A DNA stretch of 38,324 bases from a virus (lineage: Duplodnaviria; Heunggongvirae; Uroviricota; Caudoviricetes): IMG/VR virus record IMGVR_UViG_2718218135_000002, positions 1-38,324 of that record. One strand, 5' to 3'. Positions within the stretch are counted from its first letter, which is position 1. Each line of letters begins with the position of its first letter. The position numbers were made by a program. Below, piece by piece: positions 1 to 6,000 of this stretch.

Positions 1-3000
1 ATGGCACTGAATATTCCATTCAGAAATGCGTACTATCGTTTTGCATCCAGTTACTCATTTCTCTTTTTTATTTCCTGGTCGCTGTGGTGGTCGTTATACG
101 CTATTTGGCTGAAAGGACATCTAGGGTTGACAGGGACGGAATTAGGTACACTTTATTCGGTCAACCAGTTTACCAGCATTCTATTTATGATGTTCTACGG
201 CATCGTTCAGGATAAACTCGGTCTGAAGAAACCGCTCATCTGGTGTATGAGTTTCATCCTGGTCTTGACCGGACCGTTTATGATTTACGTTTATGAACCG
301 TTACTGCAAAGCAATTTTTCTGTAGGTCTAATTCTGGGGGCGCTATTTTTTGGCTTGGGGTATCTGGCGGGATGCGGTTTGCTTGATAGCTTCACCGAAA
401 AAATGGCGCGAAATTTTCATTTCGAATATGGAACAGCGCGCGCCTGGGGATCTTTTGGCTATGCTATTGGCGCGTTCTTTGCCGGCATATTTTTTAGTAT
501 CAGTCCCCATATCAACTTCTGGTTGGTCTCGCTATTTGGCGCTGTATTTATGATGATCAACATGCGTTTTAAAGATAAGGATCACCAGTGCGTAGCGGCA
601 GATGCGGGAGGGGTAAAAAAAGAGGATTTTATCGCAGTTTTCAAGGATCGAAACTTCTGGGTTTTCGTCATATTTATTGTGGGGACGTGGTCTTTCTATA
701 ACATTTTTGATCAACAACTTTTTCCTGTCTTTTATGCAGGTTTATTCGAATCACACGATGTAGGAACGCGCCTGTATGGTTATCTCAACTCATTCCAGGT
801 GGTACTCGAAGCGCTGTGCATGGCGATTATTCCTTTCTTTGTGAATCGGGTAGGGCCAAAAAATGCATTACTTATCGGAGTTGTGATTATGGCGTTGCGT
901 ATCCTTTCCTGCGCGCTGTTCGTTAACCCCTGGATTATTTCATTAGTGAAGTTGTTACATGCCATTGAGGTTCCACTTTGTGTCATATCCGTCTTCAAAT
1001 ACAGCGTGGCAAACTTTGATAAGCGCCTGTCGTCGACGATCTTTCTGATTGGTTTTCAAATTGCCAGTTCGCTTGGGATTGTGCTGCTTTCAACGCCGAC
1101 TGGGATACTCTTTGACCACGCAGGCTACCAGACAGTTTTCTTCGCAATTTCGGGTATTGTCTGCCTGATGTTGCTATTTGGCATTTTCTTCTTGAGTAAA
1201 AAACGCGAGCAAATAGTTATGGAAACGCCTGTACCTTCAGCAATATAGACGTAAACTTTTTCCGGTTGTTGTCGATAGCTCTATATCCCTCAACCGGAAA
1301 ATAATAATAGTAAAATGCTTAGCCCTGCTAATAATCGCCTAATCCAAACGCCTCATTCATGTTCTGGTACAGTCGCTCAAATGTACTTCAGATGCGCGGT
1401 TCGCTGATTTCCAGGACATTGTCGTCATTCAGTGACCTGTCCCGTGTATCACGGTCCTGCGAATTCATCAAGGAATGCATTGCGGAGTGAAGTATCGAGT
1501 CACGCCATATTTCGCTATCAGGATTCTGTGTGATGGTTACATCGCCCGGCCCAGGGCTGTTTAGTCATCAGCGCTTTCTGACAGTGCTGAGATTTCAACC
1601 TGTTGCAGTAAAAATGAGTAGATATAAGGCAAGTGTGCTGCCAAACCCATCTTTTACGGGGTGAAGGTAGATTTCGTTTGAAGGGTATCTGGTGTCCCCT
1701 GCAGACATCTACTTGACGAGGCAGGGGATTGATTGGAATGGTGTTTTTTAGATGTGAGAAATATTTTACCCGCTATTTTACCCATTGGCGCGGCTTAAAA
1801 GCTTATTTTTGAATTCACAATGGTCACGATATAACCATCTTGCTCGCCCGTGGATAACTTTGGCTTTTGGCAGGTCTCCGGACTTAATCCGGTCGTAGAT
1901 GAAGGTTTTACCGAAGCCAGTATCGGCCATGATGAATTTCAAATCAACCAGTGAATCAGGCTGTAGTTCGTGTTGCATGAGTGCTATCTCCGAATAGGGA
2001 ATCGAACCTGCAAATCAGGCAATAAAAAACCGCCATTAGGCGGCTTGGTGTTCTTTCAGTTCTTCAATTCGAATATTGGTTACGTCTGCATGTGCTATCT
2101 GCGCCCATATCATCCAGTGGTCGTAGCAGTCGTTGATGTTCTCCGCTTCGATAACTCTGTTGAATGGCTCTCCATTCCATTCTCCTGTGACTCGGAAGTG
2201 CATTTATCATCTCCATAAAACAAAACCCGCCGTAGCGAGTTCAGATAAAATAAATCCCCGCGAGTGCGAGGATTGTTATGTAATATTGGGTTTAATCATC
2301 TATATGTTTTGTACAGAGAGGGCAAGTATCGTTTCCACCGTACTCGTGATAATAATTTTGCACGGTATCAGTCATTTCTCGCACATTGCAGAATGGGGAT
2401 TTGTCTTCATTAGACTTATAAACCTTCATGGAATATTTGTATGCCGACTCTATATCTATACCTTCATCTACATAAACACCTTCGTGATGTCTGCATGGAG
2501 ACAAGACACCGGATCTGCACAACATTGATAACGCCCAATCTTTTTGCTCAGACTCTAACTCATTGATACGCATTTATAAACTCCTTGCAATGTATGTCGT
2601 TTCAGCTAAACGGTATCAGCAATGTTTATGTAAAGAAACAGTAAGATAATACTCAACCCGATGTTTGAGTACGGTCATCATCTGATACTACAGACTCTGG
2701 CATCGCTGTGAAGACGACGCGAAATTCAGCATTTTCACAAGCGTTATCTTTTACAAACCCGTATTCCTGCTCATATCACTCTCCTTTGATGCGAATGCCA
2801 GTAGCGCGGATTGCATCGATGACTTCAGAAACTTTGTATGCCATTACCGTTTGGTAATCATCGTGAAAATCTGTTCGATGAAGCATGCTGCTACGTTCCG
2901 GGAGCAGTATTTCCCGCGCTTTCAGTTCTGCAATGCGCTTTTTTGCTGCTTCCAGTTCATCCAGTAATTCCAGCACGGTAGCCGGATTAGCCTTGGCAAC

Positions 3001-6000
3001 AAAATCCCGGACTTGCTTACAATCAATCTCCGCAATGGGTTGATACGATGTGTAGCCATGCTGTCTTGTATAACTACCGTGACGAATAACGAAAAAATCA
3101 CCATTTATTTTTTTAGCCTGCCACTTATCTTCACCGGCTTTCTCTGCCGCTTCACGCAGTGCCTGATAGTCAATCTTGTTCATATCACATCACCCTGAAG
3201 CCGTTGCATTTACGTAAAAAATCGCAGATATAGCCCTTCATTTTTTCGTGCCAATCTCGATCATTCCCATTGCACCAACCATCAGGTGGAGTCCAGTTTT
3301 CTATCAGAGCAGCCATTTTCTTTGCTTTCGCCGGAGTAGCTGTTGCGGTATCGCAGTAATGACGAGTGTCAACCAACGCATCCATACCATCGATATCAAG
3401 TACGCAAAACCATGTGTGATTCGGCATTCCAACAGATGGTATTTGTTGCCCACGTCGACGTTTATCAATAAGACATACAGTCACTGGCTGCCTCCTTTGC
3501 GAAGCTGGTCGGCGAACAAACGTACACTAGACGCTTCACTGCGTAGAAACTTAACGGCATAATCAAAACCACCTCGTTCTGCGTCGTCTGCTACGTTGTC
3601 GAGGTTATCTGCGTACATCTCTACCCCCTGCGCCCGTACTTCAGCCAGGAAAGCGTCGGTAGTTGGGGTTTCAGTAACATCATCTTCCCATTCGCTAAAC
3701 TCCTCACGACAAAAGTCATTAAATTCCTTCTCAGATTGCTTAAGCGAGGTATTTTCAGCAGCCATCTTCGCGCACTTGGCCTCAAGGTTATCAATCGTGA
3801 TTCCAGCAGAACGACACTCCCGCAACGCCGTTTCCAGTTTTGATTCAAGTTCACCGAACTTACGGACAAGATATTCAGCGTTTGTTTCGTTAACCTTTAA
3901 ATCTCGTGGGATGCATTTACCTTTCAGAAATCCATCCATCTCAATTAGTGACATTTGTTTCATTTCTTCCCACTCCGCCACATCGCATTCAGATATTTGT
4001 TTTGATTCACTGACGGAAAAGAATTTCTCTTAAGCAATTCCTCTCTCGATGGCATTGGCTTTACGCGTTGGCGAATAATCATTTCTGCCGGAAGAATGCC
4101 GGGATTGTATGCAAGTCCTCTCATGGTAAATTCCTCTTTGTTAATTTATTTGTATGCCTGTTCTCTCTTCATCGAGTTTTTTTAGCTTGTATCGCATAGC
4201 TCTCACTGAATAAATTGAGCGGCAGGTTGCAATTGCTATTTCTTCTGCGGAGAACTTACCGAAAAGTGATACTTCGGCTCTTGTCCATCGTCTTCCACGA
4301 AGTCGGCTAACAATGTCAGCGCCAATCCTTGTTGCTTTCGCCATTACTGCTTTTTCAGTCCTTTCCAGTTTTTCAGCGATAACTTCAACTGGCATTGTCG
4401 CCGCTACCTCGCGCAAGAAATCGACTTCCCATTTCTCCCATGGAGTCTTTTTCATAGTCGATACCGTTATTTGATAAGAAGTGAAGGTTTCCCAACTTTG
4501 AGTTGAGCACCGGGGATATTTATTCCTGCTTTTAGTTGGTGTTTGATTGCCAGTTTGTCGGCTTTAATTGTCGTTTCGAACTCAACGTATTCAGGAGGAA
4601 GGGCGCTTGAGTCGATGATTTCTACAGTTTCTGACGGTTTGCGGATTGTTACCTGGTGAATACCTGCTCGAATCTTTTTCTTGCCAACCATTTCAAGCGA
4701 TGACGCTATATACGCCATAATGCTGTCAATCTTATTTTGAATTACTGCGGCTCGCTCATTTAGTGACTTTGCCTCTTCCTTGAGGCGTTCAGCATAACCA
4801 GATTCATTTTTAATGACGGAAAGAAGTTGCTCTATTTTATCGGTAAATTCTCCTTCCATGCCTTCTATTGTGTCAGCAATCATCTCTGGTTCTAAATCTG
4901 AATCCATCAATTTTGCGTATTCATTGGCAATTTCATACAGTTTGCTCACTGGCAACCTCCAGTTTCGCTTTGCATTCTATGTAAATGGCTTGTACGTTCT
5001 GCTGCAATTTCATTCCAGATGTCAGGCGATATGCTTCTGCAAAATATCGCTTCAAATCATCCATGTTTTCTGCCTGAGCCATTTCATCACAAAGAAGTTG
5101 TGCTTTTTCCATAATTTCCTGCTGGCGTTTCCGTTCATCTTCGCGGATATCTTCCTCTGATTTGTGCGGCATAACTGGTTCAGTCCACACACCTTCTTCT
5201 TCGTTTAGTACGTGAATAGCACTATCAAGGCGTGATGCTTTAGGCCAATACTTGCTTGCACGCTTTACGACCGTCTTTCGCGCCATCTCATTCCAGTGAT
5301 TTACCCATGGTCCTTTATCGCTGAATGCTGCCTTGCTTGTTTTCCTTACAGCCTCAATTTCAGCCAGACTCATCTCTTCCGTTAGATAATCACCTGCTGG
5401 CGTCTTAACTGTGCAGTAAACGCCAACGATATCACCACGATCACCGAAGGCGTTGTATTTATGGGTTGGTGCTTTATCAAGCCCGTTTGACTCATAGGTA
5501 TCGTTAGCATGAACAAGTTTTGCCTGACCCCATGAGATAACACCAGACTCCATTGCAATATGGAGCAATCCCATATAGCTGATATCAAGGCAAACCATGC
5601 CGTCGCGCGGAACTAGATAAGCAAGTTTGCTGGCCGGGTTTAAGGTGATGCCGATCGCCGCAACATTGATGATGGCGTTCTGTGCGCTGGTTGGATTTGC
5701 CAGTGCCGTTTTAGCCAGGTAATCATTTTTCTGGAAATACTGAATTGCAAACTGGCTTTCCTTAGCCCATGTCACCGTCTGTTCAGTCAATGCTCCGCAG
5801 AATAACTGCTCCTGCTGTTTAACGAATTCAACGATATTGCTCATGCTGCTTCTCCATAAATGTGTCTGCGTTTGAATATTGCGAAGGCATATTCAGCCTT
5901 AACTCTTTCGGTTATTGCATCCCAGAACCATTCAGCGGCTTTTTCCTGATAGTCACAGTCATCATCTTCCAGCCAGTCGATAGCGTCCTTAGTGTGTTCA

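Follow-up and report, generated by a model that had tools for sequence, protein, structure and literature searches.

The region between exo and xis of bacteriophage lambda is expressed early and affects lysogenisation and induction (PMC3824215, PMC4195576). Among its products, Ea22 is pro-lysogenic (PMC7093339, PMC10834534), Ea8.5 may act in transcription or cell division, with MinE, Q and Ren as candidate partners from yeast two-hybrid work, and a T7 Gp2-like model of Orf55, involving RNAP beta' and sigma70, exists only as speculation (PMC8614690). In phage P22, the Abc1 protein aids recombination according to classical genetics; it is non-essential, and its mechanism is not known (PMC12315714). 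Here we describe a block of seven small genes at positions 2036-4455 of a 38,324-nucleotide stretch from a virus of the Caudoviricetes (IMG/VR record IMGVR_UViG_2718218135_000002, positions 1 to 38,324), hereafter the window, and compare it with these systems.

We consider it highly probable that the block consists of already-known gene cassettes, brought together as a recombinational mosaic at the end of the PL operon farthest from the promoter, in a P22-like prophage of the HK620/KplE1 type at argW. All of its genes have been described before, both as sequences and as families, from lambda, HK620, HK140 or Pfam. The way they are arranged is a textbook case of lambdoid mosaicism, and the block is an ordinary accessory block. 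The sole point of modest novelty concerns its last member, ORF7, as an Abc1-like companion of diverse recombination modules.

Composition of the block

Seven open reading frames (ORFs) on the minus strand were confirmed between the TorI excisionase gene and the Gp157-RecT module. They are listed below with the length of the product in amino acids (aa) and, where informative, its isoelectric point (pI); HTH stands for helix-turn-helix.

2036-2203, minus strand: ORF1, lambda Orf55 (lambdap35), 55 aa, acidic, pI 4.9; phrog_676, E = 7e-40
2292-2573, minus strand: ORF2, lambda Ea8.5, 93 aa; Pfam Lambda_ea8_5 (PF20735)
2776-3183, minus strand: ORF3, short Ead/Ea22-like protein, 135 aa; phrog_1667, E = 1e-56
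3185-3484, minus strand: ORF4, DUF7739 protein, 99 aa, small alpha/beta fold; Pfam PF24881
3481-3981, minus strand: ORF5, HK620 HkaH / HK97 gp37 / P22 EaE-like protein, acidic coiled-coil; phrog_614, E = 5e-62
3960-4124, minus strand: ORF6, DUF2737 protein (HK620 HkaI, HK97 gp38, P22 orf56), 54 aa, very basic, pI 11
4141-4455, minus strand: ORF7, HK140 gp39-type protein, 104 aa, two tri-helical HTH repeats of the GcrA/Myb type, basic, pI 9.9

The number, lengths and coordinates of these frames in a preliminary description, made from the sequence alone, were all borne out by the ORF listing, and so were the flanking genes (TorI at 1778-1978, Gp157 at 4467-4955, RecT at 4933-5844) and the tight packing. 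The stop codon of ORF6 overlaps the ATG of ORF5 as ATGA (3963-3960), and that of ORF5 overlaps the GTG start of ORF4 as GTGA. ORF4 is preceded by the Shine-Dalgarno sequence AAGGAGG and separated from ORF3 by a spacer of 1 nt, and the only two gaps in the block lie at 2204-2291 and 2574-2775.

Each of the seven ORFs has a match in PHROGs (E = 1e-23 to 1e-62), and five of them are 99-100% identical to annotated phage proteins. Because every ORF has a strong match to a phage-family profile, we regard them as genes and not as chance frames. That some of them are chance frames after all, or decaying pseudogenes of a defective prophage, is extremely improbable in our view. The DUF2737 gene is frameshifted in a sister prophage, and argW prophages such as KplE1 of K-12 are often defective. 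Against this, all seven ORFs are intact, full length for their families and strongly matched by profiles, they are near-identical to genes of the viable phages lambda, HK620, HK140 and Gally, and the P22-like gene set of the window is complete between xis and int.

The preliminary description had rightly placed the block in the variable ea or accessory region of a lambdoid prophage, here a P22-like one. Its statement that only one member, the Ea22-like one, was recognisable does not hold. ORFs of the block pass the Pfam thresholds for Lambda_ea8_5, Ead_Ea22, DUF7739 and DUF2737 or are identical or near-identical to lambda orf55 and ea8.5, HK620 hkaH and hkaI and HK140 gp39, and ORF5 belongs to the modular Ea22-like pool as well as ORF3. 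For practical purposes, the genes can be annotated as Orf55, Ea8.5, Ea22-like, DUF7739, HkaH/EaE-like, DUF2737 and Abc1-like HTH-repeat protein, and two cues can be retired, namely “only one recognisable” and, for ORF4, “Cys-rich”.

The xis-proximal part of the block is that of lambda. Positions 2016-2801 of the window correspond to lambda 29098-29872 with 97.7% nucleotide identity over 786 bp, and this stretch takes in the spacer as well as the final ~25 nt of ea22. ORF1 and ORF2 are Orf55 and Ea8.5 themselves, with the spacer and the terminator-like hairpins included: ORF1 is 100% identical to lambda Orf55 over 55 aa, ORF2 is 98.9% identical to lambda Ea8.5, and the gene order (xis, orf55, ea8.5) is the same. 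Also shared with lambda are the location beside xis, where the PL operon ends, and the N-terminal Ea22 domain of ORF3. On the other hand, orf61, orf63, orf60a and orf73 of lambda are missing here, ORF3 has 135 aa compared to 182 aa in lambda Ea22 and is without the Ea22 C-terminal domain, and the carrier is a P22-like podovirus, not a Lambdavirus.

A similar comparison can be made with the ea genes of P22 and the hka genes of HK620. ORF5 is 99.4% identical to HkaH and its core is 62% identical to P22 EaE, ORF6 has the same sequence as HkaI (100% identity) and shares 75% identity with P22 orf56, and the order EaE-like gene, DUF2737 gene and recombination module is the same in both phages. Unlike in P22 and HK620, the genes abc2, eaA, eaC, eaF, eaG and eaI are missing here and a DUF7739 gene is inserted. 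The recombination module also differs, consisting here of RecT and Gp157, whereas P22 has Erf and HK620 has Sak4 and SSB.

Segments of the window were also compared with six reference phages, with the following best matches:

1690-2083: HK620 (98% nucleotide identity, on the excisionase side)
2016-2801: lambda (97.7%)
2772-2955: 3' end of HK620 hkaG
3137-3182: short conserved 5' tip of ea22, common to lambda, HK620 and Gally
3185-3480: no match among the six references
3481-4136: HK620 (98.6%)
4121-6237: HK140/Gally (~98%)

Homology switches at gene borders or within conserved gene tips, with joints around ORF3 at 2772-2801 and 3137-3182. These joints were observed directly, as were the gene identities, the family memberships, the fold of ORF7 and the pattern of linkage described below. 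When 5426 complete E. coli genomes were searched with 1250-5000, 4356 had a match to some portion of it, and a match to at least 80% of this region in one place was found in a single genome (1/5426). ORF7 is present in 298 of the genomes, ORF4 in 430 and the complete lambda-like segment in 231. The pieces of the block are common singly, and their exact combination is rare.

ORF7 and its relation to Abc1 of P22

The linkage of the seven genes was examined in 80 viral contigs with copies of ORF7 at at least 98% identity, the denominators varying per gene. Gp157 adjoins ORF7 at a fixed spacing in 80/80 contigs, RecT is present in 78/78, and the DUF2737 gene (ORF6) follows ORF7 in 79 of the 80. 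The corresponding counts are 40/77 for ORF5, 37/55 for ORF1, 30/55 for ORF3, 8/55 for ORF4 and 5/55 for ORF2. ORF1-5 are a freely shuffled cassette, and ORF7, usually along with ORF6, travels with Gp157-RecT. Distant relatives of ORF7 were found next to other modules, one directly after an ExoVIII-like gene and phrog_11517 in an Enterobacter prophage, and another after Gam, phrog_21613 and a YqaJ exonuclease in Salmonella.

The two internally repeated HTH-like segments that the preliminary description had seen in ORF7 are supported by both structure and profile, and are closest to the DNA-binding domain of GcrA and to Myb repeats. The halves are not significantly alignable to each other (Smith-Waterman score 21, shuffle mean 21.3). 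No Pfam threshold for GcrA (PF07750) or Myb-type families is passed by ORF7, and a search of PDB sequences gave no meaningful match. In contrast to GcrA, the sigma70-binding C-terminal domain is missing and only the fold of the DNA-binding domain is common to the two, and in contrast to GcrA and Myb proteins in general, ORF7 is a phage protein of 104 aa consisting solely of two repeats. ORF7 most likely binds DNA.

ORF7 is 99% identical to HK140 gp39, and its close homologues are confined to the Enterobacteriaceae; relatives of ~150 aa contain three repeats. When 1.84 billion representative proteins were searched by profile, 2573 were retrieved at E<=1e-3, many of which are 300-900 aa long, have 3-10 copies of the unit and come from metagenomes. 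Sampled members of this repeat family pass the Pfam thresholds for Myb_DNA-binding, Sigma70_r4_2 or GcrA. In one protein of 807 aa (P0054), ResIII and Helicase_C domains are fused to seven Myb-like repeats.

Profile comparisons suggest that ORF7 and P22 Abc1 belong to one repeat superfamily, with similar size and position. The phrog_323 profile is matched by Abc1 with E = 1e-23 and by ORF7 with E = 4e-20. Of 194 proteins that searching with ORF7 had recovered, P22 Abc1 alone matches 103, compared to none for five control phage proteins. The two proteins have 94 and 104 aa, respectively, both are of the HTH type, and both are encoded directly promoter-distal to the recombinase module. They differ in that no pairwise alignment is obtained, that the recombinase is of another type, and that the abc2 partner is missing here, no homologue having been found in the block with BLASTP against Abc2 of P22 and HK620. 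By analogy, ORF7 may play a poorly defined, non-essential helper or regulatory role, like P22 Abc1 beside Erf.

A counter-defence and a cell-death-trigger phenotype have been assigned to Abc1 in a screen of accessory genes (bioRxiv 10.1101/2023.04.06.535777; PMC12373910). Abc1, which is orf116 of Silas et al., raised fitness for several phages and several hosts in this screen, and triggered cell death that depended on the P4 satellite. Tentatively, and as one possibility that we would not call probable, we propose that HTH proteins with two or three GcrA/Myb-like repeats (phrog_11492 and phrog_323, Abc1 among them) form a conserved DNA-binding companion of otherwise unrelated recombination modules, such as RecT+Gp157, Erf, the ExoVIII type and the Gam+YqaJ type, and serve as a regulator or counter-defence factor common to them, for instance by controlling RecBCD access or by setting off or escaping abortive systems encoded by satellites, as reported for Abc1. 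An Abc1-like gene that is kept beside varied recombination modules while the downstream genes are shuffled would help to explain the role of Abc1 in P22.

We also considered that ORF7 could simply be a regulator of transcription, acting on genes of the phage, the host or a satellite, with no role in recombination or in relation to RecBCD. The similarity of its two HTH domains to the GcrA DNA-binding domain and Myb repeats, the label “transcriptional regulator” of phrog_323 and the suggestion by Silas et al. that P22 Abc1 may disturb transcription of the P4 satellite are all in line with this idea. It is nevertheless doubtful, given that ORF7 adjoins the recombination module in 80/80 contigs, across three non-homologous module types, and that classical genetics puts Abc1 in recombination (PMC12315714). 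A role as regulator and a role as recombination helper are not mutually exclusive.

Public annotations of Abc1 are inconsistent, as seen for the ORF7 homologue of Gally and for hkaK of HK620. The former (4164-4478) is annotated as Abc1 without pairwise similarity to P22 Abc1, and this label was taken as positional until the profile evidence was found.

For the timing of expression and for all molecular functions of the block, we infer the following scenario. By analogy with lambda and P22, N-antiterminated transcription from PL would reach ORF1-7 soon after infection or induction, and would be the only transcription of ORF1-5. ORF7, being small, basic and probably DNA-binding, and usually ORF6, would serve with the Gp157-RecT recombination module. 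ORF1-5 would correspond to the interchangeable and non-essential accessory genes of the exo-xis and ea kind, and their products might influence the choice between lysis and lysogeny, as well as host physiology, through binding to host or phage proteins or to DNA.

Several points speak against this scenario and against the link to Abc1. Expression in the prophage is assumed from lambda and P22, and there is no established biochemical activity for any of the seven proteins. A direct BLASTP comparison of ORF7 with P22 Abc1 gave no alignment, and a hidden Markov model (HMM) of the ORF7 family scored only 8.7 bits on Abc1 (E = 0.002 among 24 sequences). The common HTH repeat is generic and present in hundreds of unrelated multi-repeat proteins, and homology at the domain level therefore need not mean the same job. 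Position can also mislead, as hkaK of HK620 (4481-5068), once called abc1 on positional grounds, is an SSB (PMC5928155). Finally, the linkage to Gp157-RecT may partly reflect recent common descent, the contigs having ORF7 copies that are at least 98% identical.

The shuffled genes and the anti-defence question

The Cys motif CPLC in ORF2, to which the preliminary description drew attention, was confirmed, and it is aligned with CPQC of 2M7A, the PDB entry of a solved prophage homologue of Ea8.5 that is matched by ORF2 with E = 8e-18. The score against PF20735 is 164.3 bits (cutoff 27), with residues 8-93 on profile positions 1-90/90. Residues C27, H29/H30, C84 and C87 are aligned to Cys/His of 2M7A, and C19 and C62 are not conserved in this alignment. 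The former correspond to conserved Cys/His residues and are putative zinc ligands. A hybrid homeodomain/zinc finger fold is attributed to the Ea8.5 homologue (Kwan et al. 2013, as cited in PMC8614690).

ORF4 had likewise been described as Cys-rich. The protein does contain six Cys residues, but only C93 is invariant in the family alignment, and for this reason the term carries no functional signal; among the seven proteins, Cys content is of significance in Ea8.5 alone. The candidate of a zinc or Cys-cluster protein was rejected, with 5/6 Cys not conserved. ORF4 scores 75.8 bits against Pfam DUF7739 (cutoff 27; residues 1-93 on profile positions 1-92/98), and its AlphaFold2 (AF2) model has a predicted local distance difference test (pLDDT) of 84.5 and a predicted template modelling score (pTM) of 0.76. 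A profile search of PDB sequences gave no meaningful match, and a Foldseek search with the model gave no match below E=0.5 and no convincing structural match.

DNA mimics are strongly acidic. We think it very unlikely that ORF4 acts as a DNA mimic or inhibitor in the manner of DMP12/YfbM proteins: the Foldseek comparison with DMP12 gave E=3.5 and a TM-score of ~0.4, the sequence identity to proteins of this kind is 5-7%, and ORF4 is slightly basic, with a pI of 8.3 and 12 acidic and 14 basic residues. The candidate of a DMP12-like DNA mimic was dropped, neither the fold match nor an acidic surface having been confirmed.

The DUF7739 gene also occurs at at least 99% identity on E. coli plasmids of ~93-96 kb, and 71 of its 464 matching places are on plasmids. 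These plasmids could be phage-plasmids with the same accessory cassette.

The block had been proposed as a typical hiding place for anti-defence or host-takeover genes. The hypothesis that at least one of ORF1-6 inhibits restriction, RecBCD or an abortive-infection system is unlikely in the light of our results. None of ORF1-7 matches a characterised anti-defence protein, and the families Acr, Ocr, ArdA, Ral, Lar, Abc2 and Gam were not found among them in Pfam, PHROGs and NCBIfam, a set that includes no dedicated anti-defence HMM library. PADLOC returned only a 14-bit chance match for ORF5, and NCBIfam returned nothing for ORF1-7. Neither Ea8.5 nor Ea22 occurs in the accessory-gene screening papers examined, the published phenotypes of lambda Ea8.5 and Ea22 concern the lysis-lysogeny balance and not immunity, and the fold match of ORF4 was not confirmed by Foldseek. 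The sole link to anti-defence is indirect, through the place of ORF7 in the Abc1 repeat superfamily. Essentially all members of the block fall into well-known ea-gene families, which is the first of two outcomes that the preliminary description had named as speaking against its proposal.

ORF3 is composed of an Ea22-type N-terminus, a coiled-coil stretch and a C-terminus of the HK620 HkaG type. It scores 65.7 bits against Pfam Ead_Ea22 (PF13935; cutoff 27, residues 3-108), its C-terminal 66 aa are 83% identical to HkaG, and its alignment to lambda Ea22 is limited to the first 84 and the last 17 aa. A three-domain architecture as in lambda Ea22 was rejected for ORF3, the C-terminus being of the HkaG type. 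ORF5 has 166 aa when read from the GTG and 160 aa when read from the ATG at 3963. The latter is probably the true start, since it overlaps with ORF6 as ATGA and gives the 160 aa length of HK620 HkaH. Searches of PDB sequences with ORF3 and ORF5 gave no meaningful match.

ORF3 matches the N-terminal half of phrog_368 (1-89) and ORF5 the C-terminal half (91-239), and in phrog_14548 the two match different parts in the opposite order. Because both match parts of shared PHROGs, we assign ORF3 and ORF5 to one modular Ea22-like pool. This suggests that Ea22-like proteins are put together from modules that have been shuffled and that meet at coiled-coil segments.

ORF6 scores 107.7 bits against Pfam DUF2737 (PF10930; cutoff 25). 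Of the E. coli relatives, strain JCKP02 is the closest; its DUF2737 gene carries a frameshift annotation (6323-6486), and a DUF5405 gene is inserted between this gene and the ORF7 homologue. A gap of 298 nt, consistent with such an insertion, is present in 31 of 79 viral contigs. Only one incidental mention was found in the literature on DUF2737, DUF7739 and DUF5405.

The non-coding features of the block are as follows:

2027-2046, minus strand: terminator-like GC hairpin with a T-run, overlapping the ORF1 stop; also scores on the plus strand
2223-2274, minus strand: two tandem terminator-like hairpins (2274-2253 and 2242-2223) between ea8.5 and orf55
2574-2775, minus strand: non-coding spacer of the same kind as the lambda ea22-ea8.5 intergenic region, within the lambda-like segment 2016-2801

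A rho-independent terminator is annotated in HK140 at the place equivalent to 2027-2046, and because the plus strand also scores, this hairpin may be bidirectional. Orf55 has terminator-like hairpins on both sides, a tandem pair upstream and a single one over the stop, all within the segment of 97.7% identity to lambda. The spacer at 2574-2775 contains a single weak promoter-like site at 2712-2685. An autonomous promoter is not proposed because such sites are no commoner in 1250-6300 than in shuffled sequences (7 observed, 9.9 expected). An Rfam scan of 1200-9000 at E<=1 gave no match, and hence no known small RNA in the gaps.

Prophage context

The window contains a complete P22-like prophage (Lederbergvirus, of the HK620/Sf6/KplE1 type) with a full gene set from xis to int. 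The features outside the block are:

1-1248, plus strand: major facilitator superfamily (MFS) permease gene, sucrose/oligosaccharide type, at the window start
1778-1978, minus strand: TorI-type excisionase (HK620 hkaC / KplE1 TorI), the lower flank of the block; phrog_66 excisionase
4467-5844, minus strand: recombination module, the upper flank of the block; Pfam Sipho_Gp157 and RecT, phrog_253 and phrog_148
4467-4955, minus strand: Gp157/Mu-Gam-like gene; Pfam Sipho_Gp157
4933-5844, minus strand: RecT gene; Pfam RecT
6234-6386: Kil
7771-8643: S24 repressor (cI-like)
8910-9206: cII
32426-34267: tailspike with P22 head-binding domain
34314-37017: gtrCBA
37167-38324, minus strand: IntS-type integrase, at the window end

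The TorI excisionase, whose homologue is annotated torI in RefSeq, lies at one end of the prophage and the IntS integrase at the other, an arrangement also seen in KplE1 and annotated for HK620. The block therefore forms the end of the leftward early operon that is distal to its promoter. No tRNA gene was found within the window, and the attachment-site tRNA must consequently lie past the integrase end. The recombination module of HK140 is listed as SAP type 4 + MuGam (PMC12315714).

The P22-type tailspike is followed, within 32426-37017, by an operon of the gtrA/gtrB/gtrC type for O-antigen modification (seroconversion) that adjoins the integrase. At the other end, the prophage abuts the csc sucrose locus, and in a sister genome RefSeq places the equivalent permease gene beside cscA. 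Just promoter-proximal to the recombination genes, at 5841-6152, the window encodes a phrog_3486 protein of 102-103 aa. It adjoins the RecT/Gp157 module in 76 of 78 related contigs and is also found beside an ExoVIII-type module in the Enterobacter prophage (locus positions 2306-2614), and it may be another conserved companion of the recombination module.

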